IMG/VR virus record: IMGVR_UViG_3300035562_000082
Coordinates: 53,595 to 117,594 of that record
Strand: one strand, 5' to 3'
Origin: a virus
Taxonomy: Duplodnaviria > Caudoviricetes
DNA: 64,000 nt
The translations under genes were made by a program, and so were the position numbers. A model generated the notes under the pieces. The model was not told the DNA's origin and ran no database searches. It saw only the letters and a program-made list of their open reading frames with translations. Of the stretch, positions 1-61,265 are shown in pieces. Position 1 is the stretch's first letter, and the number at the start of each line of letters is the position of its first letter.

Positions 1-2409
1 CAGTACGTACCGTATACCAAGACCCCGTTCTTTGATCAACTGACGGCTCTTCAGGGTGTGCACCCGAAGGACGTTGAGGGCTATCCTCATGCAAAAGCCC
101 GTAAGGAATTGTTTGTCAAGCAGCCGGTGGAAGACCTGCCGTCCAAGGACTTGATTTTCACTCAGAACGTGGTGAACATCAAGGGCATAGCGCGGGCTGG
201 TGGAAATCCGGATCCATCACCCGCACAGGTAGTGCGGTATCAGGGTAAGAACTACCTGATGGACGGTCATCATCGGGTGGTCGATGGAATAGCCCATGGT
301 GAGTCCACGGTGCACGCGCATGTACTGACGATCGAGCCCGAGGCTAAAAAGTATGCGCAGATCCTGAAGTTCAATCCTTATCACGATGATAATGGACGGT
401 TTACCGTTCAAGAAGGCGGGGTGTTACCCGGGCACAAGAACATCCCGACCATCAACGCCATGCGCATGGCCATGGACAAGGTCGGGGAGGCGGAGTTCGA
501 ACGTCGGGTACGCGATCACGTAACGACCTTGGGCCGGCAGTTGACGGCCGATGAGTACTCACATGAGGTGGAGCGTATAGCCCGGCAACTGATTGCCCAG
601 AAGTTGGAGTTCGCGCGGATTCTGAAGTTCAACGAGAACCACGATGAACGGGGACGGTTTGCCAGTGGGCCGTCGAGTGGTGAGGATTTGCCGAAGAGCG
701 TGGCGCTGTCGGTCTCTGGTGAGCCGGTAGTTCGAGATCCAGGTTGGAAGAACCAAGCGATTTATGCTGAGAGGATGATTCGTGAAACCGCGAGTAAGTT
801 ACGGTTCAAGGGCGATGTACAAGTGATCTACGGCGAGGCCCCGTCGTTCAAGGTCGGAGACGCCACGTACAGAGAAGGTGGTCATTGGGATGCGCAGAAC
901 AATCGGATTGTGATCCGTGGTGATTGGACGTTGGATAAGACCACGCAGAATTTTGGTGGAGCGGCGATTGCCGGAGTGACTGCTCATGAGGTTCAGCATT
1001 CGCGCTGGACCTACGCTAAGGGTGAGTACGAATTGGCATCAGCGTTGATCAGCAAGGAACCACGAGGAGAAGCAGCGTACAAAGATCCGGTAATGCGTGC
1101 CAGTGGTGAGTTGAAACCTCCGTATGATGCTAAGTACCCGGCGTACGTGCAGTGGAATGCGGTGTTTAACGACGGCAAGATCCAGGATCAGCTAGAGAAA
1201 GAAGATGGAGTTACGGACTATAGTCGGGCGTATTGGAAGAACAAGGACGCACCGTTGTGGAGAGAGCGGGCGATTGACGAGACGCTGGCGGAGATCGCTA
1301 ATCTCAAGGCCCAAAACAAGTACTATAAGGCCGCCCCGTCTTGGGAGAAGGCGTATAAAGCGGTGAACCGCATTGCCCGTGATTTTGCCAGTGGTGCAAA
1401 TCGTCGGGCGTATCAAGCGGGTGATCCGAATCGTGTGGTGAAGGCCGAACAGAATCTGTGGGGGTTCGATGCGCGGTTCAAACTCTGTCCGGTAGATCAA
1501 GCGGTGGTGCTGAAGTACTTTGAACCCGATGGCTCACACACGTGGTTGACGCCTATTCCGGACAAACAGAAACCTGAGTATGCGGATATTTTGAAGTGGG
1601 ATGAGAATCAGCCACGAGATGATCGTGGGCGGTGGACCAGTGGTGGCGGAGATCTAGGACCAACCAGGGCAGAGCGCATTAAGGAACTTGCACAAGGACT
1701 GACGCCTGGAGATTACAGTAGCTTGCCGCCGAAGGCCGTGCAACCAACGGCCAACAAGGACGAGTTGTACAAGCGCGCGGCCGAGGGCCTGGAGCAGCTA
1801 CGGGACTGGTTGAACCGTGGAACGGGCGTGGCGTGCAAGATGGGCTACACGTTGGTGAAGAAGAGCCCGGATGACATGACAGCCGAGGACTGGCGGCAAT
1901 CGAGCAAGCTGCTGTTCATCGCGCCGTTGAAGGGCATGGGGCGGGCGGAGGAGAAGGTCAACGCCGACTACCATGGTGACTGGTCACAGCTTAAGGACGT
2001 GGTGCGCTGTACGTTGGCGACGGACAACGTGAATCAGTTGCAGGACACCATTCGAACGCTGGAGAAGCAGGGCATGGTGTTGGCCCAGCGGCCGAAAAAT
2101 AACATGGAAAACGCTTCTAAATACTGTTATCGAGATGTGAATTTGGTGGTAAAGCTACCTAATGGATTGTTGGCGGAGGTGCAGTTCAACGTCAAGGACA
2201 TGCTTCAGGCCAAGAACGAGGCCCACCGGTATTACGAGATCACGCGGTCGATCGAGGCCAAGCACACGGTGGACGGCGTGCAGTCGGACGCTCGTACGTG
2301 GCCGGAAAAGGATCAGGAGGATCATGCAGATGCAGCGGCAGTGCAGACCCACGTTTACCAGGATGCGTGGAGTGCTCATGTACGACAGTACTACAAGAAA
2401 AAACCGTGA
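1..2409 (+). CDS. 5'-partial polyvalent protein: ParB/Srx-like domain, zincin-like metallopeptidase, RelA/SpoT-like synthetase domain, separated by repeated tags
   Basis: Frame is open from base 1, so the true start lies upstream. ParB-like YLMDGHHR; HEVQH...ETLAE zincin motif; LKGMGRAEEKV...LKDVVRCT...YRDVNLVVKL...AEVQF RelA/SpoT motifs; three ILK-[FW]...D-x-x-GR[FW] repeats. Confidence 0.75.
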   Translation, partial: QYVPYTKTPFFDQLTALQGVHPKDVEGYPHAKARKELFVKQPVEDLPSKDLIFTQNVVNIKGIARAGGNPDPSPAQVVRYQGKNYLMDGHHRVVDGIAHGESTVHAHVLTIEPEAKKYAQILKFNPYHDDNGRFTVQEGGVLPGHKNIPTINAMRMAMDKVGEAEFERRVRDHVTTLGRQLTADEYSHEVERIARQLIAQKLEFARILKFNENHDERGRFASGPSSGEDLPKSVALSVSGEPVVRDPGWKNQAIYAERMIRETASKLRFKGDVQVIYGEAPSFKVGDATYREGGHWDAQNNRIVIRGDWTLDKTTQNFGGAAIAGVTAHEVQHSRWTYAKGEYELASALISKEPRGEAAYKDPVMRASGELKPPYDAKYPAYVQWNAVFNDGKIQDQLEKEDGVTDYSRAYWKNKDAPLWRERAIDETLAEIANLKAQNKYYKAAPSWEKAYKAVNRIARDFASGANRRAYQAGDPNRVVKAEQNLWGFDARFKLCPVDQAVVLKYFEPDGSHTWLTPIPDKQKPEYADILKWDENQPRDDRGRWTSGGGDLGPTRAERIKELAQGLTPGDYSSLPPKAVQPTANKDELYKRAAEGLEQLRDWLNRGTGVACKMGYTLVKKSPDDMTAEDWRQSSKLLFIAPLKGMGRAEEKVNADYHGDWSQLKDVVRCTLATDNVNQLQDTIRTLEKQGMVLAQRPKNNMENASKYCYRDVNLVVKLPNGLLAEVQFNVKDMLQAKNEAHRYYEITRSIEAKHTVDGVQSDARTWPEKDQEDHADAAAVQTHVYQDAWSAHVRQYYKKKP
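352..1635 (+). repeat. Three copies of a peptide tag: YAQILKFNPYHDDNGRF (352-402), FARILKFNENHDERGRF (610-660), YADILKWDENQPRDDRGRW (1579-1635)
   Basis: Read directly from the translation; each copy sits at a domain boundary. Confidence 0.9.
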
Positions 2410-2450
2410 TATACTGGGACTGATGGGCCTGTAGGCCCAGGGTTGTTACC

Positions 2451-2639
2451 ATGGTCGAGTACGCGGAATTGGAGGGCGTGGTTTACCGTACGCGAGCGGA
2501 CGGGTTCTTTGCCGAGCACGCGTATGGCGGAGCGTGGACGCCTGGGGGAAGCAATTCCAGGGTCTGTATGTACGGCCGACCAATGACCGAGAGCGAGGCC
2601 CGAAAGTTCTTGGGGTCGGAGTGGCCCGAAGGCCCTTGA
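2451..2639 (+). CDS. Small hypothetical protein, candidate antitoxin/immunity partner of the upstream RelA/SpoT domain
   Basis: 62 aa ORF directly after the toxin-like C-terminal domain; function inferred from position only. Confidence 0.5.
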   Translation: MVEYAELEGVVYRTRADGFFAEHAYGGAWTPGGSNSRVCMYGRPMTESEARKFLGSEWPEGP

Positions 2640-2664
2640 CAAACCTTTAGGGCTGTGCCATACT
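2636..2664 (+). promoter_or_regulatory. sigma70-type promoter TTGACA-N17-CATACT
   Basis: Perfect -35, 17 bp spacer; spacer nearly identical to that of the promoter at 8588. Confidence 0.75.
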
Positions 2665-2701
2665 ACGTCTGTAGTGTGATTTTCTTGTCAAGGAGTGACA
2701 A

Positions 2702-2785
2702 ATGACGATCGTCTGTGGTGTGGTGCTCGCGGTGTTCCTCGTGGTCTGCCTTGTGGGTTGTGCGGCTAGCGAGGGTTTCTACTGA
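2702..2785 (+). CDS. 27 aa hydrophobic peptide with possible lipobox (LVGC)
   Basis: AGGAG RBS; MTIVCGVVLAVFLVVCLVGCAASEGFY; stop overlaps the next start (TGATG). Confidence 0.5.
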   Translation: MTIVCGVVLAVFLVVCLVGCAASEGFY

Positions 2786-4755
2786 TGGCCATCGAGTTCT
2801 ATCCGATTACCGAGTCTCTGCTGCCGGAGAACGCGAACAAAGAGTTCCTGGGTAGCAAGGGCTATTTCCTGTGGTGGATGGCCCAGCAAGGACTTCCAGT
2901 TCCCCCGGCCGTAGTTTTGCCGACGACCGTTTGTCGTGAGTACTGGACGAAGCCCAAGTCGGTAATGCGTGAGGTTCGATCCACGGTCATTCAGATTGCC
3001 GCGTACTTTCAGAAGCAATGGGGGTACATGCCGTTGTTGGCCGTTCGTTCTGGCGCAGCGAATTCGATGCCGGGCATGATGGACACCATCCTGAACGTCG
3101 GACTCGATCCCGCGAACGAAGAGTTCTGGCGCAAGCGCCTGGGCGATAGCTGCTACGACAATTGTCGGCATCGGTTGATCACCATGTACGGCGATGTCGT
3201 CAAGGGCTTGGACCGACAGGAGTTGAAGGACCGCAGTGTGCAGGAGGCGCTGGCGTACTATCAGAAGGCCATGGGTGAATTCCCGGGGTTCAGAGACCAG
3301 CTAGTGGGCGCTGTTGAGGCGGTGTTGAAGTCCTGGAACACTGATCGGGCGAAGTTCTACCGCAGCAAGTACAAGATCTCCGATGATGGTGGAACGGCCG
3401 TTGTTATTCAGGCCATGGTCTTTGGCAACCTGAACAAGAACAGTGGTTCGGGTGTGATGTTCACCCGCAATCCGATTACAGGAGAGAACGAAGCCACGGG
3501 GAATTTTTTGGCCATGGCCCAGGGTGAGGACGTGGTGGGTAATGCGCTCGCGCCGAATTTGAAGGCCATGGGCAAAAGCCATCCGAAGGCCGCGAAGAGT
3601 GTGTTGGCGCTTGCGACCAAGCTTGAACACACGTTGAAGGACATGCAGGACGTGGAGTTCACGGTGCAGGATGGGGAGGTGTGGCTGTTGCAAACGCGCA
3701 CGGGCAAACGCGAAGTCCGGGCAGCGGTGAAGATCGCGTACGACATGGTGCACGAGCAGTTGATCACCGTGCAAGAGGCGGTCAAGCGCGCAAACCCTCG
3801 TCAGTTGGATCTTCTACAGCAACGGGCAGTGGCCCCGACGTTTACTAAAGCCCCGACGTTCATTGGCATGCCCGCGTGTTCGGGCGCGGTGGTGGGTAAA
3901 CCGGTGTTCACCGCACAAGCGGCAATCGATTGCCAGGAACCGTGTATCCTGGTGCGCAAGAACACCGATGTGGATGACATCGAGGGCATGGTCGCTGCGG
4001 CGGGGATCCTGGCCATGACCGGTAGCGAAACCTGTCATCCGGCGATAGTGGCCAGGGGCATGAACAAACCGTGCGTAGTGGCGCTCAAGCAATCGCTGGA
4101 GGTGTTCAATAACGTGGATCGTATTTCGATCGATGGTGCGACCGGTCGGGTGTGGTTGGAGGCCGTGCCCATGGTCGAGGCCGATAACACGGACTTGGTT
4201 CGGGCATTTCAGTCGATGATGATTCGGGCGTTGGATGTTGTTCCGGTGTCCGATACACCGATTGAGGGCGTGAACACCGTGTTTCTTGATCTAGGAGGAC
4301 GGTTGCACGATCAAGGACTGGTATTGAGCATGGTGATGGCCGCGCTGGATGCGGCGGATACCGTGTACGTGGACTGCCGGTGGGCCGATAGGCCGGAGGC
4401 CGAGCGATCGATGATGGACATGTTTTACCACAATTGCAAGTACGAACAGCAGTTTGTGCAGTTCCTGGACGAACATGTACCGGCGGAGAAACTTAGTAAG
4501 CTGGTGTTGCTGACCAATCAAAAGCCGACGAAAATACAGGTAATGAGTTGTGCCACGGGCTTGGCGGACTTGATCATGGCCAATGGCTGGATAGCAATTG
4601 AGCCCGGGCATGAACTTGGGTTCGCGGATCCGCAGGTGTCCAAGGTCTTGTCGTGGCAAAAGGCTGATGGACTACAGATTTTGTACTTGAATCATCATCG
4701 TGCAGATGGCCGATCGGTGTTGAGCCCCGAGCAGGTCATGCAGTTGCTAGGGTAG
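2785..4755 (+). CDS. Pyruvate phosphate dikinase-like protein (ATP-grasp + phospho-His swivel domain, no PEP/pyruvate TIM barrel)
   Basis: GLPVPP, VRSGA-x2-SMPGMMDTILNVG, QAMVFGN, FTRNP-x-TGE, QGEDVV, DVEFT...LLQTR; His domain TCHPAIVARGMNKPCV; unrelated ~190 aa C-terminus. Confidence 0.85.
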   Translation: MAIEFYPITESLLPENANKEFLGSKGYFLWWMAQQGLPVPPAVVLPTTVCREYWTKPKSVMREVRSTVIQIAAYFQKQWGYMPLLAVRSGAANSMPGMMDTILNVGLDPANEEFWRKRLGDSCYDNCRHRLITMYGDVVKGLDRQELKDRSVQEALAYYQKAMGEFPGFRDQLVGAVEAVLKSWNTDRAKFYRSKYKISDDGGTAVVIQAMVFGNLNKNSGSGVMFTRNPITGENEATGNFLAMAQGEDVVGNALAPNLKAMGKSHPKAAKSVLALATKLEHTLKDMQDVEFTVQDGEVWLLQTRTGKREVRAAVKIAYDMVHEQLITVQEAVKRANPRQLDLLQQRAVAPTFTKAPTFIGMPACSGAVVGKPVFTAQAAIDCQEPCILVRKNTDVDDIEGMVAAAGILAMTGSETCHPAIVARGMNKPCVVALKQSLEVFNNVDRISIDGATGRVWLEAVPMVEADNTDLVRAFQSMMIRALDVVPVSDTPIEGVNTVFLDLGGRLHDQGLVLSMVMAALDAADTVYVDCRWADRPEAERSMMDMFYHNCKYEQQFVQFLDEHVPAEKLSKLVLLTNQKPTKIQVMSCATGLADLIMANGWIAIEPGHELGFADPQVSKVLSWQKADGLQILYLNHHRADGRSVLSPEQVMQLLG

Positions 4756-4784
4756 TTGCCTGAATGACATTCGGAAGCTACAAT
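4756..4784 (+). promoter_or_regulatory. sigma70-type promoter TTGCCT-N17-TACAAT
   Basis: Intergenic, correct spacing, upstream of the wHTH gene. Confidence 0.5.
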
Positions 4785-4812
4785 CGGGAGGAGCCGATGC
4801 ACGCGTCGCCGG

Positions 4813-5262
4813 ATGCACACAGACTGTCCAAAGTGCGGGAGTTCCAGTGCCTGTTATCAACTAAATGGGCCGGATATTGTACTGCATTGTTTGTGCGGGT
4901 TCTTCCGCGTGGTGTTCTCTCAGTTGGAGACCGTGGAGATCCATCACAACGGGGTGGGCGCGGATGTTCGTCTGCCGAAGACCGGCACGCACTTACGTCG
5001 AACGTTGTTTGCGGTCGAGAACTTGGAAGAAGCGAATACAGCGGAGATCGCAGAACGGTTGTGGGACCTGGGGTTGCACTACACTATGAGTGATGTAGCG
5101 TCGTACCTCACGATCTTACGGTCCAAGGGTTTAGTGGAGTCACCGGTTATCCGTCGGGGGGTGGCCGGTGGAAGCACCTGGACGTTGACCGATGCGGCGA
5201 TGGATTTACTGGGGGCCTTACAGCCAAGCAATGGAGTGCAAATATGCTATCGATCGGGGTAA
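4813..5262 (+). CDS. Zn-ribbon + winged helix-turn-helix DNA-binding protein
   Basis: CPKC...CLC N-terminus; TAEIAERL...VASYLTILRSKGLVES...WTLT winged-helix pattern. Confidence 0.65.
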   Translation: MHTDCPKCGSSSACYQLNGPDIVLHCLCGFFRVVFSQLETVEIHHNGVGADVRLPKTGTHLRRTLFAVENLEEANTAEIAERLWDLGLHYTMSDVASYLTILRSKGLVESPVIRRGVAGGSTWTLTDAAMDLLGALQPSNGVQICYRSG

Positions 5263-5534
5263 TTACCGGGAGTCAGATCAACATTTGGACAATGCCGGGT
5301 TGTCCAGATCCATGGCGCGAGGTCGTGCAGATCCTGGAGGCGCGGCCGAAGATGGTGACGCTGAAGGTCAACGGCCGTAAGCCCGTGGTGGTCACCGACG
5401 AAGAGCAGATTGAGATCCTGCCGGCGGTGAAGGTCCAGGTAGGGGTGAAGGACGGTCTGAACATCAGCGGTAGTCGTTTGGCGTTTGATGCCCCGAGGTA
5501 CATTCAAATCCAACGGGTGCGAGAGCGTGCTTAA
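5244..5534 (+). CDS. CsrA/RsmA-like protein
   Basis: MLSIGVITGSQINI start and RLAFDAPRYIQIQR end resemble CsrA (ML-x-L-x-R...VRIG-x-x-AP-x-x-V-x-V-H-R), with an internal insertion. Confidence 0.5.
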   Translation: MLSIGVITGSQINIWTMPGCPDPWREVVQILEARPKMVTLKVNGRKPVVVTDEEQIEILPAVKVQVGVKDGLNISGSRLAFDAPRYIQIQRVRERA

Positions 5535-5802
5535 ACTCAGCGATCGGGTGAAGGCCATTGCTGTAGAGGAGGGGATTACGTTGTTGGAGTTGGAGACCAT
5601 GGTGGAACGCGCGGCGGTGATCACCAAGGGCGCGTTCAATCGCCGATATCACAACTGGGTGTTCTCGATGTCCGATGAAACGGCGGTTGAGGACATGCGG
5701 TCGTTCGTGATGCGTGGGGGTGGTTCTGCCCGAGTAGATCACCAAGAATGTGCGGGCAAAGGTTGTAAACTCTGTGGATGGTGGGGTAAGCTTTTGATAT
5801 GA
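5527..5802 (+). CDS. Hypothetical protein with C-terminal Cys cluster
   Basis: Co-oriented ORF overlapping the previous stop; HQECAGKGCKLC. Confidence 0.6.
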   Translation: MLKLSDRVKAIAVEEGITLLELETMVERAAVITKGAFNRRYHNWVFSMSDETAVEDMRSFVMRGGGSARVDHQECAGKGCKLCGWWGKLLI

Positions 5803-5842
5803 AAGGCTGTTAAACTGTAGGTAACCTAAAGGAGTAGGTGAC

Positions 5843-6337
5843 ATGTTGGGAAATCTGAAACTTCCGTTGTACTTTGGTAGCCATTACATGGTCTGGGGTG
5901 GGCCGTACTTGGAACGCCCGCAGGGCATGGTGTCGGTCAAGCTCGCGCGGGAGATCAATGCGCCGGCTGACCTGGAACTTCCGATCAAGGACTTCAGTAC
6001 ACCCGAACAAGCGGCCACCGACGCGGTGATGCGTGTGGCTGTGGCGTTCATTCTACGAGGTGAACCGCTGTACGCTGGGTGCATGGGCGGTCGAGGTCGT
6101 ACGGGGTTGTTTCTGTCGCTGTTGGCCAAAGCCTTTGGCGTACGTAGTCCCGTGCAGTACGTGCGGGCGAACTACTACGAGCATGCGGTGGAAACCGTGC
6201 AGCAAATGGAGTTCGTGCGCGACTACCAGATTCCGTTGGACGTGCAGAAGGCCGTGCGACGTGCCAAGTGGCGGTCGTTGTTTTCGTTCGGGCGGAACAT
6301 GACGGTGTACAACGGGGTGTTCGCCCAGGCCGCTTGA
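5843..6337 (+). CDS. Dual-specificity/protein-tyrosine phosphatase family protein
   Basis: CX5R loop GCMGGRGRTG, PIKDFSTP acid loop, AVET-x2-Q. Confidence 0.85.
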   Translation: MLGNLKLPLYFGSHYMVWGGPYLERPQGMVSVKLAREINAPADLELPIKDFSTPEQAATDAVMRVAVAFILRGEPLYAGCMGGRGRTGLFLSLLAKAFGVRSPVQYVRANYYEHAVETVQQMEFVRDYQIPLDVQKAVRRAKWRSLFSFGRNMTVYNGVFAQAA

Positions 6338-6362
6338 CAGACGACGGTGTTTGTACTATAGT
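6334..6362 (+). promoter_or_regulatory. sigma70-type promoter TTGACA-N17-TATAGT
   Basis: Near-consensus hexamers with 17 bp spacer. Confidence 0.75.
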
Positions 6363-6389
6363 TTGAAGTACTCCAAGGAGTGGGGTGTT

Positions 6390-6827
6390 GTGGGCGGAAT
6401 TGATAGACAACGGTATTTAGTAGACCCTGCATATAGGGCTCATGTTACTGCTAATAACAGAGCTTCTTATGCTCGCAGACAAGCAATTAAAGGAAAGCTG
6501 GTTAAATCTATTGGTCCATGTGCGCCGCGTAAAAACGTTATTCCGTTGTCGGGCGTACAACATCATCATAGGCAGAGGTACAGTTTAGAACCTTGTGAAT
6601 TTGATCGTCTGTATGAAGAACAGGAAGGGAAGTGCGCTTGTTGTTTTTCGCTTTTTGTGGAACCGGGTAAACTCCATGTAGACCATGATCATGAATTGAA
6701 TAAAGTGCGAGGATTGTTATGCCATAAGTGTAATCGTGGTATTGGTCTACTTGGTGATACGTTAGAATCAGTTCAAAGGGCCGTTAGTTATTTATTGAAA
6801 TCCCAAGGAGTGGGAGTAAAAGAGTGA
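6390..6827 (+). CDS. Endonuclease VII-family HNH (homing) endonuclease
   Basis: Q-x-GKCACC...LHVDHDH...VRGLLCHKCNRGIG; visibly AT-richer than its flanks; GTG start chosen downstream of the promoter and AAGGAG. Confidence 0.85.
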   Translation: MGGIDRQRYLVDPAYRAHVTANNRASYARRQAIKGKLVKSIGPCAPRKNVIPLSGVQHHHRQRYSLEPCEFDRLYEEQEGKCACCFSLFVEPGKLHVDHDHELNKVRGLLCHKCNRGIGLLGDTLESVQRAVSYLLKSQGVGVKE

Positions 6828-7861
6828 AGTACCTGCCGGCCAATACTCTTGCGTATTACCAAGCGGCGCCGCAGTTTAAACCGCAGGTGTTGACCCATGT
6901 GCCGGTAGCGCGATTGGCCAAGGCCACGCAGATTTACCGGCAGGGTCATACCACGGAGGTACCACCTACGGAGGAAGCCGCCCGGTTCTATGCGTTGAAT
7001 CACTGTGCGTCGATCGTACGTGCGCGGTTTACCGTCAATGAGGTTCTGCCGGCCTGGGCGCAGGCGGTGATGCAGGTGTATCTTGAGACCACGATCAAGC
7101 AGTCTGAACGCCTACTGCACTACATGATGTGCATCATCACGCGCGAGGCCCGTAATCAAGGGCACATGACCGACCTTGGGGGGAAGGTTATGGCGGAGAT
7201 CGAACACCAGAGTCCGCAAATGCGGGAGTTCCTGGAACAGATCAAATCCACTGCTGAAATGCAGGCGGTGGGCTGGTATATGGAACAACCGCCAGCGGTA
7301 ACGGCCGAGCAGTATGTGCAGGCCATAGCCCACTTGTTTGACCACGGTAAGTGGAGCAGTAGCTACGGCGGGAAGAACTGGGGGAACATCGCGCGGACGG
7401 TGTTGAAGGTCTTGACCGGTGTAACGTCGTTGGAGACCTTGACCGACACCGCGTACACGTTGGCGCACAACGGTGGGCCGATGTTCAACAAGGGCATGCT
7501 CTATTCTTCTTCAGATGAAATCAAAGAACGGTTGTTGATGGTGTTGGACGTACAGCGTGGAGGTCAAGTACCGGAGTTGTTTTTGGATCAGGAGAATTGG
7601 GCGGGCCTTGTACGACCCCCGGGTATCGTGCAGATCGTAGAGCAAGTTCGTCACGAAGTACCTAAGGCCATTGGGCAGTACGTGGATTGGCAGAAGGTGA
7701 TCAACGCCAGTCCCGTGGGCGAGTACGACCACCAGTTGAGCAAGCAGCAGCAGAAGCACCCGGCGCCGCAGGTTCAGATGTTCATGGGCAAGCCCGCGAA
7801 GAAGGTCGGGGAGTTCCAGGTGTTTCCTGGGCAATCGGTTGAAGTGTACGAACGAGGATGA
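6824..7861 (+). CDS. Hypothetical protein of the phosphotransfer module
   Basis: 345 aa ORF with motif-like YGGKNWGNIA and AHNGGPMFNK segments; family not recognised. Confidence 0.7.
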   Translation: MKYLPANTLAYYQAAPQFKPQVLTHVPVARLAKATQIYRQGHTTEVPPTEEAARFYALNHCASIVRARFTVNEVLPAWAQAVMQVYLETTIKQSERLLHYMMCIITREARNQGHMTDLGGKVMAEIEHQSPQMREFLEQIKSTAEMQAVGWYMEQPPAVTAEQYVQAIAHLFDHGKWSSSYGGKNWGNIARTVLKVLTGVTSLETLTDTAYTLAHNGGPMFNKGMLYSSSDEIKERLLMVLDVQRGGQVPELFLDQENWAGLVRPPGIVQIVEQVRHEVPKAIGQYVDWQKVINASPVGEYDHQLSKQQQKHPAPQVQMFMGKPAKKVGEFQVFPGQSVEVYERG

Positions 7862-8601
7862 TCATGGGCAAGAAGTTGAGTTCGAGTTCGTACGCGCTAC
7901 CGGCCTGGGCAGAGGCGGAGATCGCCAGTGCGCCGATGGTGCGGTGTTACGAAACGCATCCTAAGTTATCGGTGACCGATGCCTCGACTGGTCATACGTA
8001 CTGGGTGTACGGTGGTAGCTGTAGCTGGCCGGTGGTGGACGACGCGGATATCTACATCGGACTTGATCGCAGCATGACCTTTGCCCATCAGTTGTACCCA
8101 TGGGATGAACCAAAGGTCGATCCGGTGATCGAGGTGCAGTATGTGATCGTGGACATGAGTGTGCCGGCTGATCCGTCGTCGTTCAAGCGGATGGTTAAGT
8201 GGATCTGTCAACAGATTCTTGTGGGCAAGAAGGTGCACGTGGGATGCATCGGTGGTCATGGTCGGACGGGCATGGTGCTGGCGGCCATCGTGTTCGAGCT
8301 TTCGGGCAATCATCAGGCCATTCTGTACGTGCGTGAGCACTACTGCAAGAAGGCCGTGGAGGCCAGTGAACAGATCGAGTTTCTTCATGAGCAATATGGC
8401 ATGGACAAGGCCCAGGCGACCAAGAGCGCGGATGGGAAGGGGTGGAAAGGCGAGGGGGCGTGGGATGGTCAGACCAAGCTGCCGGCGATCTGGCAAGGTA
8501 AGGCCCAGCCACTGCAATCAGTTGCATTTTCTAACGCCACTAGGGTGATTGATCCGACACCCAGCAAGAAATCCTTGTGGAATCCGATTGACAAACCCTA
8601 G
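7858..8601 (+). CDS. Second dual-specificity/PTP-family phosphatase
   Basis: HVGCIGGHGRTG CX5R loop, IVDMSVP, AVE-x3-Q. Confidence 0.85.
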   Translation: MIMGKKLSSSSYALPAWAEAEIASAPMVRCYETHPKLSVTDASTGHTYWVYGGSCSWPVVDDADIYIGLDRSMTFAHQLYPWDEPKVDPVIEVQYVIVDMSVPADPSSFKRMVKWICQQILVGKKVHVGCIGGHGRTGMVLAAIVFELSGNHQAILYVREHYCKKAVEASEQIEFLHEQYGMDKAQATKSADGKGWKGEGAWDGQTKLPAIWQGKAQPLQSVAFSNATRVIDPTPSKKSLWNPIDKP

Positions 8602-8616
8602 GGGCTGTGTTATGCT
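8588..8616 (+). promoter_or_regulatory. sigma70-type promoter TTGACA-N17-TATGCT
   Basis: Perfect -35, 17 bp spacer, paralogous to the promoter at 2636. Confidence 0.75.
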
Positions 8617-8650
8617 ACGAGTATTGAACGCCGTCTGATCAAGGGAGTGA

Positions 8651-15962: not shown

Positions 15963-16008
15963 AGTCTGTCCCTCAGGTTTCCGGCTTATTGCCGGCAGGA
16001 AGATAGTA

Positions 16009-16024
16009 AGCAATGACCGTGCCA
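16009..16024 (-). promoter_or_regulatory. sigma54 (RpoN) -24/-12 promoter of the pilin gene
   Basis: Minus strand reads TGGCACGGTCATTGCT, matching TGGCAC-N5-TTGC. Confidence 0.85.
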
Positions 16025-16077
16025 GGAGCTAAGTACTTGAGTTGCAAAGGCTTTTGATTTCCTAGCCAAGTGGATGA

Positions 16078-47204: not shown

Positions 47205-47268
47205 ATCGGAAGACCACCAGGACGTACAATCGGTTGAGCGGTGCAATTGATTGCCAAAGGGAGTGCCC

Positions 47269-51158: not shown

Positions 51159-51225
51159 TCTTTGGCTGTGTCGGGCACGGGAGGATCGCCAGTCCTCCCG
51201 ATTTTGCAATTGATTGCCAACGGCC

Positions 51226-54762: not shown

Positions 54763-57700
54763 ATGCTCGGGTTTGAGTCTTTTTCCGAGCAGCCTATATC
54801 AACGCTGCCATCAATAGCGCAGCTATTCCCGGTTGGTTCAGGTTCGGTTGTTAGCGTCGGCTATGCGCCGACGGTGAATGTTCCGGCCGTTGGTAGCCCT
54901 GGTGTTGACGCACTGACGTTCACCGGCTATGCACCTACGGCCGCCGTTACTTGGTACGGCATTAAGAGCCGGCTACAAGGCCCAGTCAGCGCTCAATCGA
55001 TTTCCACAATACCTGTATCGAGCGGAACAGGTCAGGTTTTTGTTACCGCTGGTGTCGATGCCCTGGTGTTCACCGGCTATGCGCCAACGGTTTCCATTGG
55101 CGTAGGTCTTGGAACAACTGCATTGGCGTTCGTTGGTTATGCACCAACGGAAAGTACTGGGTATGTCAGTAGTCCAGGTGCCAATGTCTTGGCGTTGACT
55201 GGCTATGTTCCTACAGCGGTTTTAGGTACGGTTGTACAGCCGGGTATTGGGGCTTTTCCTCACGTTGTACAAACAACGTTGTTGTATTCCAACACCAGTT
55301 CGACAGTAGATAGCCTCGGTTTATCCTTTACTGTTTCTAATGCTGGTGATGAAATTGTTGTTTTTCTTTCTTATTACGACCTTAATACACCGGCTGATCA
55401 AGGGAATATAGCGTCGGTTTCGGACTCGGTTTCTGCTTCGTCGTTTACCGCTGGCCCCTCGGCTCACGATGCAACCATTGGATGGGTTCAATCTTTTTAC
55501 TTGTTGAATGCAGCGGCAGGGGCGCACACGCTGACGTTAACGTTCTCGCAGACTGGTCATAGTCAAGGGGCGGTTGTTTGGGGCTTGGAAGTTGTACCCG
55601 CTGTTTTTGACAACGGTTCAGCACAGATCCAAATAAGCACGGCTACTACGACCGATGCACTCAGCAGTGGTGCATGGACCACTGTTTTTAACGGCGATGT
55701 AGTTCTTGGGTTTGTTACAGGGTGGAATGCCGCTCCGCCACTTGCTGGAACTGGATTCGTTCGTCTTGGTTCAGATATACCGTCCGTTAGTGCGGTTGAG
55801 TCCAAGAATCAACCTACGGCTGGTACCGTTAGTGCCACGTGGACTGATCCCACTTCACAATTTGAGTCCGGGCAGATAGGGGTTGCCTTTGGTTTTCCTT
55901 CCGCAGCGTTGGTGCTCACGACCTACGCACCAAAATTTGATCAAGCGTTTGCTCCGGCCACGGATAGTGCGGTCTTAGCTGGCTATGTCCCGACGGTAGT
56001 CCAGGGTACGGCCGCATATCCGTTGGTCGGGGCACTGGCGTTCATCGGTTATATACCGACGGCCAGTATTGGGTACATTACGCGCCTTGGTGTTGGGGTA
56101 CTGAACTTCACGGGCTACGCACCGAATGAGGTGTTGGGTTACGTGGAGATCGAGGCCGCTGGGGCGCTGGTGTTCACCGGGTACAGCCCCTCATTATCGG
56201 TCAGCCAGACGGCTCAGACCGGCCCAGGATCAACGATCGTTACCGGGTGGGCACCCACCATAGGGGTGACCTACGCGATGCAGCCTGGGTCGATCCTGAT
56301 GGCCGGGTGGGCACCCACGGCGAGCACTGGGTTCCCGATCACGGCCAGTACGGGTGCATTGGCGATCACGACCTATGCACCGACGATCAGTATTGGCACG
56401 GTGGTAAATCCTGGTGTTGGTGCGTTGTCGGTCGTTGGCTACGCACCGAATGAGGTGACGGGATACGTTGAGGTTGAAGGCGCTGGTACGTTGGCTTTCA
56501 GCACCTACACACCCACGGTTGTCTTGGGCACGGTTGTTAATCCAGGTGTAGGAACTTTGAGTTTCACCGGTTACAGTCCGAATGAAGTACTGGGGTACAT
56601 TGAGTTCGAGGGTGCAGGGGTTTTGACACTGACTGGCTACGTTCCCAGTTTGACGATTGGGGATGTGGTTATATCTGGTGTTGGGGGGTTGGCGCTTGTT
56701 GGATATGCTCCGACGTTGGTGCTCGGGATTGTTGTACGTCCATTGGCGGGGGTGATCACTAGCACTGGGCAAGTTCCGACGTTTGGACTGGCGATTTCCA
56801 CTAATACGGGTGTACTAGGTTTTGCAGGTTATGCACCGTTTGCTAGTTTAGGTGTAAATGCGTATCCAGGTGCAGGAGCACTGAATTTTAGTGGGTATGC
56901 GCCGAATGAAGTTGTTGGTTACATTGAATTTGAAGGTGCGGGTGCCCTGGCGCTTGTTGGGTACGCACCAAGCACGTCTATTGGATATGTCATTGCGCCT
57001 GCTGTTGGAGCACTGTCGGTCATTGGACAGGCGCCAACGGTTGTTCTTGGGACTGTGGTGTTCCCATCGACGGGCACGATCGTTGGCGTTGGTTACGGTC
57101 CGACGTTTGGTCAGACGATCCCCACCAGCACTGGTACGTTGAATTTAGTTGGTTATGCATCGTTTGCCAGTCTTGGTGTAGTTGTTAGCCCACAAGTTGG
57201 TGGGCTGTCGCTGGCTGGGCAAGGGCTGTCGATCAGCATCGGCTATGTGCTCAATCCAGGTGCAGGGGCGTTGAATTTTAGTGAATACGCTGCTTTTGCA
57301 TCGTATGGATTGAATTTCACACCGGCAGCCGGAAGTCTGGCGATCATCGGCTGGCAATCAATTGCCGTTCAAGGACTGGACTTTTATCCTGGTCAAGCGA
57401 GTTTGTTGATCACCGGGCTTGGCCCGACGTTTGATCTACGGGTGCCGGAAGGCGTTGGTGTAGCGGCTTTTGCAGGCTATGGACCGTCGGCATCAATAGG
57501 TTATGTAGTTGGACCGTCCACCAAGGCGCTGGGTTTCAGCACGTACGCGCCTAGTTCGTCCATGGGTTTTGTGTACGGCCCAACGACGGACGCGATTGCC
57601 ATCGTAGGTCTCTCCCCAGCGATGTCGATTGGGTACGTGCTGACGCCGGCTGCTGGCGCTATGGCATTAACGGGCTATGGCCCGAGTATGGCCTTTGGGC

Positions 57701-59481
57701 AGTCGGTGTTGCCGGCGGTTGGATCATTGGGATTGACTGGTTACGCACCGTCGTTGTTGACGAACTACATAGTCAATCCGGCGACCGCCAGTTTGTTTAT
57801 CGTTGGTCAGTTTGTGGGTGGAAGTTTTGGTGAGACCCCAGGAACGGCCGCACTGAATTTCAGTGGTTATGCTCTGAGTGCGTTGTACGCACAGTACGTA
57901 CAACCAGCGCAAGCGCAGTTGCAGTTGGTGGGCCGTACTCCGACGATCGTGTACGGCATGGTGGCTGTACCTGGGGTTGGCACAGCGACGTTCAGCACGT
58001 ACGTTCCAGTGGTGGTCGTTGGGTCTGTGCGTGCTACGGCTCAAGCGACATTAGGGCTGACGGGCTACGCACCGACGACAAGCATTGGCACCGTACGAAC
58101 ACCGGCTACAAGGGCAATCAGCACGAGCGGTTATGGACCGGCGTTTGATCTGGGTGCCTACCCGTCTACAGTGCCGTTGGCGCTTGCAGGATGGTCCCCA
58201 GGAACGTCGATCGGGTATGACCTAGCGCCTGCCGTAGGGGGCGTGTCGATCGTTGGTCGTAGCCCGACCCTGCGCCTTGGGACGGTCGTGGTTCCGACGG
58301 TCGGTAGTGTGCTGTTGACGGGCCAAACACCGTCTACGTCATTGGGTGCGGTGGAAGTTCCGGCAGCGGATGCACTGTCGTTTGCTGGCCAAATACCGAC
58401 GTTGTTGACCGTCTATGCATCTGGTACGGGTAGCGTGGTGTTCACGAACTACGCGCCGTTCCCGGCAATCGATTTCCAGCAGCAACCGCTGTCAGCGGTT
58501 GTGCAGTTTACGGGCTATGCACCGGAAGTTGGGTTGTCCGAACAGCCGCCGACGGACGTGCTGTCGATCTCTGGGTGGGCACCGACGATAGATCTGGGTG
58601 TAGCAGTAGCTGCTGTTGACCTGAGTTTGATCGGCTATGCCCCCTTGACATCGGCTGAGGCGGTGTTAACGCCGGATTCAGCGGTGTTGAGCGCCGTTGG
58701 CTATGCACCGGTAGTGGCCGTGACCGAACAGCCGGGGGTTGATGTACTGACGATCACCGGCTATCCGTTGACGTTGGATCTTGGATTACCAACGACGGTT
58801 TATCAACTCAAGGTCGTTGGTTATGGTCCGTTATTGTCCACGCAGTATTTGATTCAACCTGTGGCTTTGCAATTGCAGGGGTGGGCGCCGCGTGTTGACC
58901 TTGGTGAGCAACTACCAACGGACGTGCTGTCGGTTGTTGGGCAAGCACCGATGCTGGATCTCGGGCTGTCAGTGGCTTCAGCGGTATTGGCATTTGCAGG
59001 CCATGCACCGACGTTTGTGATTGAGGCCCCAACACGTCCAGGAGCACTTGATTTTACTGGTTATGCACCAACGGCTAGTGTGGGGTTTGAGCTTACGCCG
59101 GTTGTTGGTGGTATTACGTTAACCGGGCAATCACCCACGGTAGTGCGGGGTGTGCTTGAGCCCGTGGCAGTGGATGTGCTGTCGGTCGTTGGTTGGGCGC
59201 CGACCGTTGGCTTTGGGACGGTGATTCCAGTTCTTGAAGAACGGATCATCTGTGTAGGTGCGTCGCCCGTACTTGATCTGTTGATCCCGAGCTTAGTTGG
59301 GGGTATTCAAGTATTTGGAGAAAGCCCAACAATTGTGTTGGGGTTTATAGAAGGACCTCAGTTCAAGGATCTGACGCTCACAGGGTATAGCCCGACACTT
59401 GTTTTTGGGTACCCAACGGTTAGCTTCGGTACGGTATTCAGCGCATACTCAGACGGAGTTTTACGGGTATTTATTTCCTGA
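54763..59481 (+). CDS. Large repetitive fibre/surface protein (~24-25 aa G-x-L-x-x-x-GYAPT repeats)
   Basis: 1572 aa; tandem repeats throughout except one unique domain at about 55260-55900. Confidence 0.8.
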   Translation: MLGFESFSEQPISTLPSIAQLFPVGSGSVVSVGYAPTVNVPAVGSPGVDALTFTGYAPTAAVTWYGIKSRLQGPVSAQSISTIPVSSGTGQVFVTAGVDALVFTGYAPTVSIGVGLGTTALAFVGYAPTESTGYVSSPGANVLALTGYVPTAVLGTVVQPGIGAFPHVVQTTLLYSNTSSTVDSLGLSFTVSNAGDEIVVFLSYYDLNTPADQGNIASVSDSVSASSFTAGPSAHDATIGWVQSFYLLNAAAGAHTLTLTFSQTGHSQGAVVWGLEVVPAVFDNGSAQIQISTATTTDALSSGAWTTVFNGDVVLGFVTGWNAAPPLAGTGFVRLGSDIPSVSAVESKNQPTAGTVSATWTDPTSQFESGQIGVAFGFPSAALVLTTYAPKFDQAFAPATDSAVLAGYVPTVVQGTAAYPLVGALAFIGYIPTASIGYITRLGVGVLNFTGYAPNEVLGYVEIEAAGALVFTGYSPSLSVSQTAQTGPGSTIVTGWAPTIGVTYAMQPGSILMAGWAPTASTGFPITASTGALAITTYAPTISIGTVVNPGVGALSVVGYAPNEVTGYVEVEGAGTLAFSTYTPTVVLGTVVNPGVGTLSFTGYSPNEVLGYIEFEGAGVLTLTGYVPSLTIGDVVISGVGGLALVGYAPTLVLGIVVRPLAGVITSTGQVPTFGLAISTNTGVLGFAGYAPFASLGVNAYPGAGALNFSGYAPNEVVGYIEFEGAGALALVGYAPSTSIGYVIAPAVGALSVIGQAPTVVLGTVVFPSTGTIVGVGYGPTFGQTIPTSTGTLNLVGYASFASLGVVVSPQVGGLSLAGQGLSISIGYVLNPGAGALNFSEYAAFASYGLNFTPAAGSLAIIGWQSIAVQGLDFYPGQASLLITGLGPTFDLRVPEGVGVAAFAGYGPSASIGYVVGPSTKALGFSTYAPSSSMGFVYGPTTDAIAIVGLSPAMSIGYVLTPAAGAMALTGYGPSMAFGQSVLPAVGSLGLTGYAPSLLTNYIVNPATASLFIVGQFVGGSFGETPGTAALNFSGYALSALYAQYVQPAQAQLQLVGRTPTIVYGMVAVPGVGTATFSTYVPVVVVGSVRATAQATLGLTGYAPTTSIGTVRTPATRAISTSGYGPAFDLGAYPSTVPLALAGWSPGTSIGYDLAPAVGGVSIVGRSPTLRLGTVVVPTVGSVLLTGQTPSTSLGAVEVPAADALSFAGQIPTLLTVYASGTGSVVFTNYAPFPAIDFQQQPLSAVVQFTGYAPEVGLSEQPPTDVLSISGWAPTIDLGVAVAAVDLSLIGYAPLTSAEAVLTPDSAVLSAVGYAPVVAVTEQPGVDVLTITGYPLTLDLGLPTTVYQLKVVGYGPLLSTQYLIQPVALQLQGWAPRVDLGEQLPTDVLSVVGQAPMLDLGLSVASAVLAFAGHAPTFVIEAPTRPGALDFTGYAPTASVGFELTPVVGGITLTGQSPTVVRGVLEPVAVDVLSVVGWAPTVGFGTVIPVLEERIICVGASPVLDLLIPSLVGGIQVFGESPTIVLGFIEGPQFKDLTLTGYSPTLVFGYPTVSFGTVFSAYSDGVLRVFIS

Positions 59482-59576
59482 GTTCGGACGATCAAACACC
59501 GTGTGTTTGCGGTAGTGTGCCGGGTTAAGTTGTGCGCGGTAGTTCAACCGGTAGTAGATTCCTATGGGTGACGATC

Positions 59577-59909
59577 ATGCACGGAAATTTTTGGAAAATG
59601 ATCTTGAGAGACTTTTGGTTGGTCTTGGCGTTGATGATGATCGGCGGACTGCTGGTGGTGATAAGCACGCCGTTGGCAAAGATCGTAGGCGAACCGGCGT
59701 TCGCACCCTGGGGCCTGTTTACCGGCGGCGTGTTCTTCATTGCGGCGTTGAGTCACATCATTCGCCGGCTGTTCTTTCACCCGCTGTCGATGCATGTGTT
59801 TGCCCAGGAGGCGATGAAGAGCCCCGCTGGCGCGGGATTGGTGGTGCTCGGTATGTGCGTTGTGCTCTCGGCGTTCGTTATGGTCATGGGCAATATGTTG
59901 AGGATCTAA
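59577..59909 (+). CDS. Holin (three TM segments)
   Basis: Three hydrophobic segments; directly upstream of the endolysin. Confidence 0.7.
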   Translation: MHGNFWKMILRDFWLVLALMMIGGLLVVISTPLAKIVGEPAFAPWGLFTGGVFFIAALSHIIRRLFFHPLSMHVFAQEAMKSPAGAGLVVLGMCVVLSAFVMVMGNMLRI

Positions 59910-59920
59910 CGTTGAGGGAA

Positions 59921-60607
59921 TTGATTTGGTTCATTGTTTGGTGTTTTGTGGTGCTGGGGCTGCTATTGGCCACGGCCTACCATAAGGCCCATGGGCAGGT
60001 GCCGGTTAACGCCAAAGAGTACCTGCCGTTGTTGGTGGACGAACAGCATCAGCGGTGGCCAGATCATCCAACGCCTACGCTTGCGGCTCAAGTTGAGCAA
60101 GAAACCTGTATTTCGCTGACCTCCAAGGGCTGTTGGAATCCCCACACAGAGTTGAAGACCAGTAGGGAGTACGGGTTTGGTCTTGGGCAGGTTACAGTTA
60201 CTGACAGATTTAATACGTTTAATGAAGAGCAAAAACTTGATCAATCGCTCAAGAACTGGCAATGGGATGATCGGTACGATCCGCGCATGCAACTGCGGGG
60301 GCTGGTGTTGAAGGACCGACAGTTGTACAATCTGATTCAAGGGGCAGCTACTGATGTTGACCATTTGGCCTTTGTGTTCGCTGCGTATAATGGCGGCTTG
60401 GGCGGAGTATTATCGGACAGGAGGGTCTGTGCGGCCACACCTGACTGTGATCCAGGGCGGTGGTTCGGGCAGGTCGAGCGTACGAGCCTTAAAGCCCATA
60501 CTGTGGTTAGTGGGTACGGACAAAGTTTTTTCGACATCAACCGCCGGTACGTGCATAATATCCTCCTTGTCAGACCCACGAAATACCAACCGTTTTTCAA
60601 GGAGTAA
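59921..60607 (+). CDS. Endolysin, lytic transglycosylase (SLT) type with an N-terminal signal/TM
   Basis: AAQVEQE catalytic Glu, GLGQ, AAYNGG; TTG start after GAGGGA chosen over the longer ORF from 59564. Confidence 0.8.
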   Translation: MIWFIVWCFVVLGLLLATAYHKAHGQVPVNAKEYLPLLVDEQHQRWPDHPTPTLAAQVEQETCISLTSKGCWNPHTELKTSREYGFGLGQVTVTDRFNTFNEEQKLDQSLKNWQWDDRYDPRMQLRGLVLKDRQLYNLIQGAATDVDHLAFVFAAYNGGLGGVLSDRRVCAATPDCDPGRWFGQVERTSLKAHTVVSGYGQSFFDINRRYVHNILLVRPTKYQPFFKE

Positions 60608-60612
60608 AGACG

Positions 60613-60981
60613 ATGCAGACCCAATTACATTGGGCCGGGTGCACAAACCACTTTGATGTAAAAACCGGAGTTCGTAGTGCGCGGGTTGAGTTCGTCTCCG
60701 GTGAACAGGTGATGACCGGCGAAGGACTACAACCGCATACGCGGTTGACGGTGACCGTCGATGGGGATACGGCGAACACCATGCAGCGGTTGAAGTATTT
60801 TGTGGTGATGTTGGTGCCTGAGACCCCGGTGGTAGAGCCCATGGTTTCAGCCGCTGGCAACGGTGGCTCGCCGGATCTTACGGCGGCTGAAGTACAGGGT
60901 AAAGAACAGGTGATAACCATTGGTCCCAGTGCGCGCAAAGCCGCTGCGGCTAAGGCAGCGGAGAAACCGGCTGGCAATTGA
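60613..60981 (+). CDS. Hypothetical protein
   Basis: AAGGAG RBS. Confidence 0.6.
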   Translation: MQTQLHWAGCTNHFDVKTGVRSARVEFVSGEQVMTGEGLQPHTRLTVTVDGDTANTMQRLKYFVVMLVPETPVVEPMVSAAGNGGSPDLTAAEVQGKEQVITIGPSARKAAAAKAAEKPAGN

Positions 60982-61265
60982 TTGCAGTTTCTGAACTGCC
61001 GATTGAACTGGTGGCTGTTCTTCAGGTTCGGCTGTCGCCGAGTCAAGAGCAGGCGGTAATCAGTTGGGCGGAGGACGTGCTGCACCATCGTGTGCAAGGC
61101 CCGGAGACCGGGCTTGTGGATAGCCGGTTGGTTTATCATTTAAATCATCGGAACTTTCAAATCGCGGCAGCGGAATTCAGTAAGTGGTGTTTGGTTTGTG
61201 GTAGACCAAGTTCTACGATGTTGAAGAAACGTCGGGAGGAACAGGCGTTGTTTCGGAGGGGCTGA
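60978..61265 (+). pseudogene. C-terminal lobe of a GH24 lysozyme lacking the catalytic N-terminus
   Basis: L-x3-Q-x-x-AVISW...LN-x5-AAAEFSKW...G......KKRREEQALF; no E-x8-D-x5-T motif. Confidence 0.6.

Follow-up and report, generated by a model that had tools for sequence, protein, structure and literature searches.

The 64,000-nt window analyzed here (bases 53,595 to 117,594 of IMG/VR virus record IMGVR_UViG_3300035562_000082, a Caudoviricetes genome of 117,594 bp that is rated complete) is dotted with copies of a near-palindromic 12-mer, GCAATTGATTGC. These copies belong to a lattice of dyad sites that is real, ancient, phage-owned, and evenly spaced and that extends over the whole genome of this phage and over the genomes of its relatives. 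The site is enriched, occurs only in phage DNA, is conserved and yet changes from lineage to lineage, is evenly spaced and unbiased in orientation, and varies independently in its two halves; from these properties we infer binding by a protein, the likely identity of that protein, and its function. Coordinates below are those of the window unless they are marked as genome positions.

Exact copies number 13 in the window (10 on the plus strand and 3 on the minus strand), as reported in a preliminary description of this DNA; two further copies with one mismatch had been listed there, but four were found (at 585, 3922, 8514, and 49542). Dinucleotide-shuffled versions of the window contained 0.44 matches on average and never more than 3. 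Over the whole genome, in which all real genes lie on the plus strand, the G+C content is 55.6%, and the GC skew is positive throughout, there were 23 exact copies (16 plus and 7 minus) and none of the reversed control, and GCAATTGATTGC was the most frequent 12-mer. Upon synonymous-codon shuffling within genes, the copies in or straddling coding sequence dropped from 9 to about 1. The enrichment therefore stands against a codon-preserving background and is explained neither by protein sequence nor by codon use. The full site spans 14 bp, (T/G)GCAATTGATTGC(A/C), with the information confined to those 14 bp and with flanks that carry no composition signal. It is built as a near-palindrome in which two TGCAAT arms flank a pyrimidine-purine center, giving a dyad of 14 to 16 bp. 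Neither AT-rich unwinding flanks nor iteron clusters were seen at the sites by flank composition analysis, and no promoter or second motif was found at a fixed distance beside them.

The lattice is shared by a broad group of phages. Portal protein matches were obtained to the Stenotrophomonas phages DLP3, DLP5, and Summit (Delepquintavirus), to Rhizobium phage TM16, to Rhodobacter phage RcZahn, and to many IMG/VR contigs; when 20 kb of the window was compared to the phage collection at the nucleotide level, no match was obtained, and a search of genome contigs with a single capsid protein gave nothing, whereas the same search with an alignment as the query gave matches. Below, G000 denotes this phage and G001 to G004 denote complete uncultured relatives, which together with G000 and DLP3 make up the six close genomes; G005 is a relative in a Hyphomicrobium metagenome-assembled genome (MAG), G006 is a Burkholderiaceae MAG contig, and G007 is the prophage region of a Roseococcus pinisoli isolate. 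The site family fills relatives at 45 to 55% protein identity, including the cultured phages DLP3 and RcZahn. G001 to G004 (112 to 120 kb; 57 to 58% identity over seven core proteins) carry 16 to 41 copies within one mismatch, compared to 0 to 1 for the control, and the top repeated word in each of the four is the site. Counted with the family pattern GCA[AC][TC]TG[AG]NTGC, the numbers of sites were 27 in G000, 34 in G001, 31 in G002, 27 in G003, 24 in G004, and 32 in DLP3. Each genome has its own preferences: every copy in DLP3 is a 14-mer with outer bases T and A, whereas GCAATTGAGTGC is the preferred variant in G003 and GCAACTGATTGC in G004. Farther relatives, at about 50% capsid identity, have derived versions, namely, the TA-center variant GTGCAATTAATTGCAC in G005 and G006, the variant GTGCACC(C/T)GGGTGCAC (core GCACC-YG-GGTGC) in G007, and TGCAATCAAYTGCA in RcZahn. 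Across lineages the outer TGCA...TGCA and the pyrimidine-purine center are kept and the inner bases vary. Neither this site nor a repeated word that would obviously correspond to it was seen in the more distant SIO-2-like relatives.

In the two MAGs and the Roseococcus isolate (4.5 to 4.8 Mb each), the 28, 14, and 9 exact copies all lie on the phage contig or region, with none elsewhere. This makes a host regulon site or a host Chi-type signal unlikely, and the lineage-specific change of the site points to a reader encoded by the phages themselves. Related phage DNA was seen within large chromosomal contigs of R. pinisoli (G007:C6, about 58 to 153 kb) and of the Hyphomicrobium MAG (G005:C4, 113 to 263 kb); in the latter, the sites fall in two blocks about 60 kb apart, which suggests two prophages or a rearrangement. 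The R. pinisoli contig is chromosomal and 668 kb long, and since the lattice persists in its prophage region, a role in plasmid partition only is weakened. No paper mentioning the motif in this sense was found in the literature, and the papers on DLP3 and RcZahn do not mention it.

The regular spacing noted previously proved to be real and to hold genome-wide, with a coefficient of variation (CV) of the gaps of 0.46 in this phage versus 0.95 in simulations (P = 1e-4). Taken over G000 to G003, the CV was 0.44 to 0.46 (P <= 1e-4 each; simulated CV, 0.95), and it was 0.51 in DLP3 (P < 5e-5) and 0.54 in the Roseococcus prophage (P = 0.0016). The largest gaps in the five clearly even genomes (G000 to G003 and DLP3) were 6.4 to 9.3 kb, and the density of the lattice is one site about every 3 to 4 kb. 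Orientation was unbiased: the six close genomes, all of which are transcribed one way, together carry 86 plus and 89 minus sites. The 10:3 excess of one orientation in the window was thus sampling noise, and the proposal of an orientation-dependent, stoperator-type roadblock is unlikely for the same reason.

About 35% of the sites touch sequence outside open reading frames (ORFs), versus 6 to 10% expected, and roughly half are truly intragenic. Copies also lie within long genes (polymerase, MuF-type, and tail proteins), where most are read in a single frame (Q-L-I-A or Q-S-I-A), as if they filled stretches without intergenic space. Some positions are shared among relatives: a site lies at the homologous position inside a 167-amino-acid (aa) tail-region gene in all five of G000 to G004, and the stretch encoding the N terminus of the MuF-type protein carries a site in all six close genomes, flipped in G002, as read from match and site coordinates. 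The RuvC gene carries a site in five relatives and not in this phage. Within 70 nt downstream of sites, the -35 hexamer TTGACA was found 19 times versus 3.3 expected; ribosome-binding sites were likewise enriched there, and T-tracts were enriched upstream, although all of these associations were loose. Two to five sites per genome in G000 to G004, and none in DLP3, precede a strong TTGACAAAC promoter by a variable 2 to 14 nt, and the remaining sites are far from TTGACA-type promoters or intragenic. Strong promoters of the sigma70 type serve the early region of this phage; their extended -35 element, CTTGACAAAC, has 10 copies in the genome (genome positions 15,429, 25,454, 31,139, and 34,114 and others), and TTGACA occurs only 3 times in the 97 kb of DLP3. 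Promoter usage therefore differs within the clade, because DLP3 is almost without such promoters, yet the lattice is common to both.

The sites in the window are as follows.

585 to 596, plus strand: one-mismatch copy GCAACTGATTGC, a family variant which predominates in relative G004.
3922 to 3933, no strand: perfect palindrome GCAATCGATTGC, one mismatch, within the PPDK-like gene.
8514 to 8525, minus strand: one-mismatch copy GCAACTGATTGC at the 3' end of the thymidylate-synthase-like gene; in five relatives, this gene carries a site some 320 bp farther upstream.
13366 to 13377, plus strand: exact site within the DNA polymerase A gene, translated L-Q-L-I-A-K.
16133 to 16144, plus strand: exact site directly upstream of the portal gene, matched in position in relative G003.
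18788 to 18799, minus strand: exact site in the N-terminal region of the giant MuF-type head protein gene.
24842 to 24853, plus strand: exact site, intergenic.
25569 to 25580, minus strand: exact site immediately ahead of the capsid protease gene, whose ATG is at 25591.
28820 to 28831, plus strand: exact site, intergenic, directly past a terminator-like hairpin 3' of the major capsid gene.
33687 to 33698, plus strand: exact site within the 167-aa tail-region gene; G000 to G004 agree in position and orientation.
37845 to 37856, plus strand: exact site, intergenic, 3' of the tape-measure gene.
42781 to 42792, plus strand: exact site within a small ORF right ahead of a 1464-aa tail protein gene.
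47243 to 47254, plus strand: exact site between a stop codon and the ribosome-binding site of the next gene.
49542 to 49553, minus strand: one-mismatch copy GCAATTGCTTGC, whose family membership is uncertain.
51206 to 51217, plus strand: exact site, intergenic, shortly ahead of a gene start.
57354 to 57365, minus strand: exact site within a 1572-aa gene, splitting what would be a gap of about 10 kb.
60974 to 60985, plus strand: exact site whose internal TGA serves as the stop codon of ORF 60613-60981.

Two of the genes listed belong to a cluster conserved clade-wide (2785 to 9616) that encodes the PPDK-like enzyme (PPDK_N and PEP-utilizers mobile domain), the thymidylate-synthase-like protein, and uncharacterized proteins; the PPDK-like enzyme and neighboring genes are kept also in the Burkholderiaceae and Roseococcus relatives, and the DLP3 and RcZahn records annotate tyrosine phosphatases in it. 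The cluster may be a nucleotide or DNA-modification module. The giant head protein (1508 aa; 18429 to 22955) combines GNAT acetyltransferase, topoisomerase IB, Acb1-type anti-CBASS phosphodiesterase, and MuF domains, and its DLP3 homologue has only 445 aa (MuF and a ParBc_2-like end). A conserved 269-aa protein of the replication module (genome 8,525 to 9,334), whose nearest neighbors in a protein atlas are T4 gp32-like clusters (score 0.89), is probably the single-strand DNA-binding protein of the phage.

The variation of the site indicates how it may be read. The commonest variants alter position 4 or 9 on one arm only (GCACTTGATTGC and GCAATTGAGTGC), and double changes are rarer. Such one-arm variants break any hairpin pairing without compensation, so that a hairpin or cruciform function was rejected and the arms behave as independent half-sites. 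Isolated TGCAAT half-sites are depleted (5 versus 11.5 expected in a 20-kb stretch in the left part of the genome, genome positions 19,001 to 39,000), as if stray half-sites were avoided. Independent arms, dyad symmetry, a flexible pyrimidine-purine center, unbiased orientation, and half-site depletion together point to a homodimer on duplex DNA and not to an RNA or single-strand signal. Judging from the sequence pattern, a dimeric phage protein thus likely docks at the sites. Binding by such a protein had been proposed in the preliminary description and gains indirect support from the dyad symmetry, the independent half-sites, the lineage-specific change, and the absence from hosts.

The binders named at that time fared less well. 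An ORF for a Zn-ribbon winged helix-turn-helix protein (4813 to 5262) had no homologue in relatives that keep the motif and no family match, and the ParB-like domain of a polyvalent protein is lacking in G002 and went undetected in the first 50 kb of DLP3, the part that was searched. The polyvalent protein itself (about 860 aa, from genome 53,409 and reaching window positions 1 to 2409) has a VapB/ParBc_2-like segment and a weak RelA/SpoT-like segment and is partly conserved in relatives. Two other candidates were rejected, namely, the stand-alone ParB_N protein DLP3_104, which has no homologue in G000 to G004, and, as a universal reader, a MerR-type regulator, which is conserved in the six close genomes; searches of the phage regions in farther site-bearing relatives did not find it, and the syntenic position there leaves no space for such a gene. 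No ParB N-terminal CTPase domain (Pfam ParB_N, PF02195) was detected at E <= 0.1 in a six-frame search of the whole genome, in which control genomes did match, and neither an integrase nor a LacI-type helix-turn-helix was found in the genome (the sole LacI match scored 11 bits). A small conserved protein (5485 to 5799), homologous to DLP3_138, which is annotated as a "transcriptional repressor," ends in a Cys-rich C-x5-C-x2-C motif and has no family match.

A reader of the ParB/KorB type is nevertheless plausible. The best candidate, found among the uncharacterized proteins common to near and far relatives, is 265 aa long and is encoded beyond the window, at genome positions 15,491 to 16,288 (DLP3_062 in DLP3). 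Its AlphaFold model has a disordered 28-residue start, followed directly by a predicted DNA-binding fold, and a confident helical core at residues 30 to 160. A structural search with the model (all versus representatives) placed seven ParB-family proteins, matched through their DNA-binding domains, within the top 18. The Z values were 7.6 for Caulobacter ParB with parS (6s6h; 112 residues aligned), 6.9 for KorB with its operator (1r71; 106 of 114 residues aligned), 6.8 for Spo0J, 6.3 for KorB with cytidine triphosphate (CTP) (8qa8), and 4.2 to 4.9 for SopB, VirB, and P1 ParB. A homologue was present in all 12 site-bearing genomes tested and in none of the two complete and three partial site-less relatives. 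Moreover, a site lies 70 to 90 bp upstream of the start codon of the gene in G000, DLP3, RcZahn, G005, and G006, and in G003 and G004 one follows the gene at a distance of up to about 160 bp; an autoregulated reader, or parS next to parB, would show this pattern. In the RcZahn record, the homologue is encoded at 58,370 to 59,587. The putative recognition helix reads RKARYL in five TG-center phages, RKAMYW or RRAAYW in two TA-center phages, and RKAYYL in the GC-rich class. The chance that the reader is this putative ParB/KorB-fold protein falls slightly short of even.

Together, these results lead us to favor, by a small measure, a genome-wide docking lattice for a homodimeric protein encoded by the phage, most likely the 265-aa protein. 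Dimers of the reader would sit on each site, and since no site-free stretch exceeds about 8 to 9 kb, the bound protein would probably act on the neighboring few kilobases chromosome-wide. It might organize or bridge DNA, silence genes or block read-through, or mark phage DNA as self; control of single promoters would be unlikely. Several observations weigh against this interpretation. The even spacing was weak in G004 (CV, 0.66; P = 0.02) and failed in G006 (CV, 1.07; not significant), and sites that lie upstream of -35 elements at a variable distance of 2 to 14 nt are a poor design for simple repression. As for the reader, the Z values are modest and of a size common for all-helical folds, which leaves the ParB/KorB-like fold suggestive only; Foldseek gave its highest probabilities to ParB entries (0.89 and 0.82) but with E-values of >0.5, and the Rubisco chaperone Raf1 scored as high or higher against the model. 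Pfam searches with eight homologues returned nothing, and a profile search of PDB sequences returned nothing relevant. The presence/absence profile and the differences in the recognition helix are confounded by phylogeny. Finally, the protein is without a CTPase module, and KorB-like sliding therefore cannot be assumed.

We considered the possibility that another phage repressor, either the MerR-type regulator (genome 10,768 to 11,193; DLP3_055) or the DLP3_138-like protein, silences the genome in a stoperator-like manner by blocking elongation in a carrier or lysogenic state. Such silencing would suit a genome whose genes all share one strand, the temperate lifestyle of DLP3 and DLP5 (PMC7326821), the enrichment of sites at the borders of genes, behind terminator T-tracts, and ahead of promoters or ribosome-binding sites, and the conservation of both candidate regulators in the six close genomes. 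However, stoperators are asymmetric and oriented with transcription (PMC4351075, PMC9283540), whereas the orientation here is 86:89 and about half of the sites are intragenic; in addition, neither the MerR-type gene, for which there is no syntenic room, nor the DLP3_138-like protein was found in the farther site-bearing relatives. We regard this explanation as unlikely. DNA-transaction signals, which could be multiple replication-initiator sites, phage-specific Chi-like signals, or dispersed terminase sites for headful packaging, are also improbable, even though an O-like/DnaD-like protein is encoded at genome positions 3,309 to 4,313, with a site in or adjoining its gene in five of the six close genomes; RecA, RuvC, a Cas4-like exonuclease, and a superfamily 2 (SF2) helicase are encoded clade-wide; a spacing of 3 to 4 kb in which the largest gap is capped is similar to the density of Chi; host DNA is free of the sites, as expected of a self-marker; and RcZahn is circularly permuted (PMC8601537). 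Chi-type signals are asymmetric single strands with an orientation bias, but the symmetry, independent arms, and half-site depletion seen here point to a dimer on duplex DNA, and AT-rich unwinding flanks and iteron clusters are lacking. We also know of no precedent for some 30 pac sites or origins in one phage.

That a conserved host protein binds the sites is very unlikely. The 14-mer resembles the LacI/GalR operator pattern, TGnAAnCGnTTnCA, and contains an IHF-like ATCAA core, but no exact copies lie outside the phage regions of the three host genomes, the sequence varies between phage lineages, the phage has no LacI-type helix-turn-helix, and the IHF spacing does not fit; since the hosts of the clade are Alpha-, Beta-, and Gammaproteobacteria, a universal factor would be needed. 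Still less probable are RNA or single-strand hairpins (terminators or processing sites) and strand-specific nick sites of the T5 type. The palindrome can be drawn as a stem of 4 to 6 bp with a 4-nt loop, and T5-like phages of similar size have nicks at conserved motifs; the stem is very weak, however, the dominant variants of G003 and G001 break its pairing without compensation, and, since both orientations are used equally in a genome transcribed one way, a one-strand signal is disfavored. The sites could, finally, be the natural target of the TIGR-TasA system encoded by this phage, with RNA-guided binding as their primary function. One unit of its array rebuilds all 12 core bases, for which the chance in this array is about 5e-5, but the lattices are complete in the TasA-less G001, G002, DLP3, G005, G006, and G007, no such guide exists in the arrays of G003 and G004 or at 80 other TasA loci, and the sites of the phage itself match only 12 to 15 of the 18 bases. 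As a primary function this is largely refuted and has very little probability.

The TIGR-TasA locus nevertheless merits description. TasA is a 351-aa protein encoded outside the window (genome 40,209 to 41,264) that matches PDB 9mty, which we take to be the TasR structure of Faure et al., at E = 3.6e-5 and shows a weak TasH match; its N terminus is too short for a nuclease domain. Downstream of tasA lies an array of about 47 units in which 9-nt repeats (edge GAAYGAGTC and loop GAGAGYACC) alternate with 9-nt spacers, a layout that agrees with the published description of TIGR (PMC12045711). The array (locus, genome 40,209 to 43,000) seems to be split by a degenerate stretch near 42,040 to 42,090, ahead of which the site-matching unit is the last well-formed one, and lattice sites at genome positions 40,165 and 43,028 bracket the locus. 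With the target geometry taken as spacer A plus the reverse complement of spacer B, as deduced from reported 8-nt 3' overhangs (PMC12045711), the unit at genome position 41,981 (spacer A, AGTTGCAAT; spacer B, GTGCAATTG) specifies the target AGTTGCAATCAATTGCAC, which includes all 12 core bases; the spacers in the 36-nt tigRNA of this guide are AGUUGCAAU and GUGCAAUUG. All other units of the three arrays and of 80 further TasA loci reached at most 9 of 12 in phase, and the remaining guides of the G000 and G003 arrays, compared against five clade genomes, gave background only, equal to a mis-phased control. The guide match is, on sequence grounds, genuine and statistically solid, and an RNA-guided binder would be able to address the site as well.

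The lattice is independent of TasA, because TasA-less relatives (G001, G002, DLP3, G005, G006, and G007) carry it. Full 18-nt complementarity was not reached; the best match was 17 of 18 in G006, and in the phage's own genome it was at most 15 of 18, one of the three best self matches lying 44 bp upstream of tasA. Sites with three or fewer mismatches to the guide numbered 14 to 19 in G001, G002, DLP3, and G006 and 34 in the 180-kb G005 stretch, compared to 3, 1, and 4 in the TasA carriers G000, G003, and G004, which are not one clade. The guide requires A at position 13, which is C in 20 of the 27 sites of this phage; the outer G..C pair (position 13 C) was found in 74%, 44%, and 38% of carrier sites versus 12%, 6%, and 0% in noncarriers. 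The sites of carriers have drifted to the G..C outer pair or to the core variants GCAATTGAGTGC and GCAACTGATTGC, and TasA-less genomes keep TGCAATTGATTGCA; with three contrasts, the difference is not significant and is a lead, not a result. It is conceivable, though rather unlikely, that TasA-tigRNA is aimed at the docking lattice of the clade, where it would jam co-infecting TasA-less relatives or tune the phage's own lattice, and that carriers have shifted their sites to escape. Should this hold, a nuclease-free TIGR-TasA system would for the first time have a natural target and a biological role, and it would connect to the ParB association that Faure et al. noted.

One group of mycobacteriophages was already known to have dispersed palindromes, whose role has been obscure for a decade. 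In the present clade, a broad one of phages of about 100 kb whose hosts are Alpha-, Beta-, and Gammaproteobacteria, a feature of this kind is conserved deeply, varies by lineage, and forms a lattice that is statistically even. A concrete candidate reader can now be named, with a predicted ParB/KorB-like DNA-binding domain and no CTPase module. Since at least two members are in culture (DLP3 and RcZahn), function is directly testable, and DLP3 is a phage-therapy candidate. The site-matching guide is, in addition, a rare clue to the natural targets of TIGR-TasA systems.

Compared with known systems, the lattice shares with the stoperators of cluster A mycobacteriophages its tens of sites genome-wide, many of them in short intergenic gaps (PMC9283540, PMC6550527), but stoperators are asymmetric 13-mers, monomer-bound, and oriented with transcription, whereas the sites here are dyads, unoriented, and half of them intragenic. 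A Chi-like signal would be asymmetric and orientation biased, and the site is neither; isolated copies of its half are, moreover, depleted. The linear plasmid prophage N15 has four dispersed SopB/ParB centromere sites and a full SopAB system. Palindromic sites scattered over a phage genome are common to both, and DLP5 is reported to lysogenize as a phagemid (PMC7326821); this clade differs in having about 25 to 35 sites, no canonical ParB, and a lattice that is present also in a chromosomally embedded prophage. The parS sites of ParABS systems cluster near the origin or parB, whereas the sites here are spread evenly over the whole genome; an AAA+ protein (62661 to 63905) is the only ATPase seen, no search aimed at the ParA family having been run. 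In TIGR-TasA systems, as in the match found here, two 9-nt spacers pair with opposite strands of adjacent half-targets; TasA loci are sometimes operonized with ParB homologues, and their natural targets are unknown (Faure et al. 2025, PMC12045711). Unlike a TIGR-TasA target, the site family exists without TasA in most relatives, and no 18-of-18 target is at hand.

The closest published description is that of the dyad repeats of cluster O mycobacteriophages (Corndog and relatives), which are 17 bp long and dispersed in more than 30 copies (Cresawn et al. 2015, PMC4351075; Ryadel, PMC6439249). As here, those repeats are a mix of intergenic, gene-start, and intragenic copies, their orientation is meaningless, a dimeric reader was predicted by the authors, and control of transcription initiation is not involved. 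Their sequence, TGTTCGG-N3-CCGAACA, is unrelated, as are the phage lineage and the hosts, so that the class is shared by description only, and even spacing, lineage-specific change, absence from hosts, and a candidate reader have not been reported for them. On the IncP-1 plasmid RK2, KorB has 12 OB sites, at intervals of roughly 5 kb. Both systems have a palindrome dispersed over a mobile genome, with copies upstream of -35 elements as well as far from promoters (McLean et al. 2025, PMC11790492). KorB is a CTP-dependent sliding clamp that works with KorA, whereas this phage is without the ParB N-terminal CTPase domain. By analogy, and given that the candidate reader has a predicted KorB/ParB-like DNA-binding fold (Z of 6.9 to 1r71, without sequence-level similarity), KorB and its OB sites would be the closest mechanistic model for the lattice.

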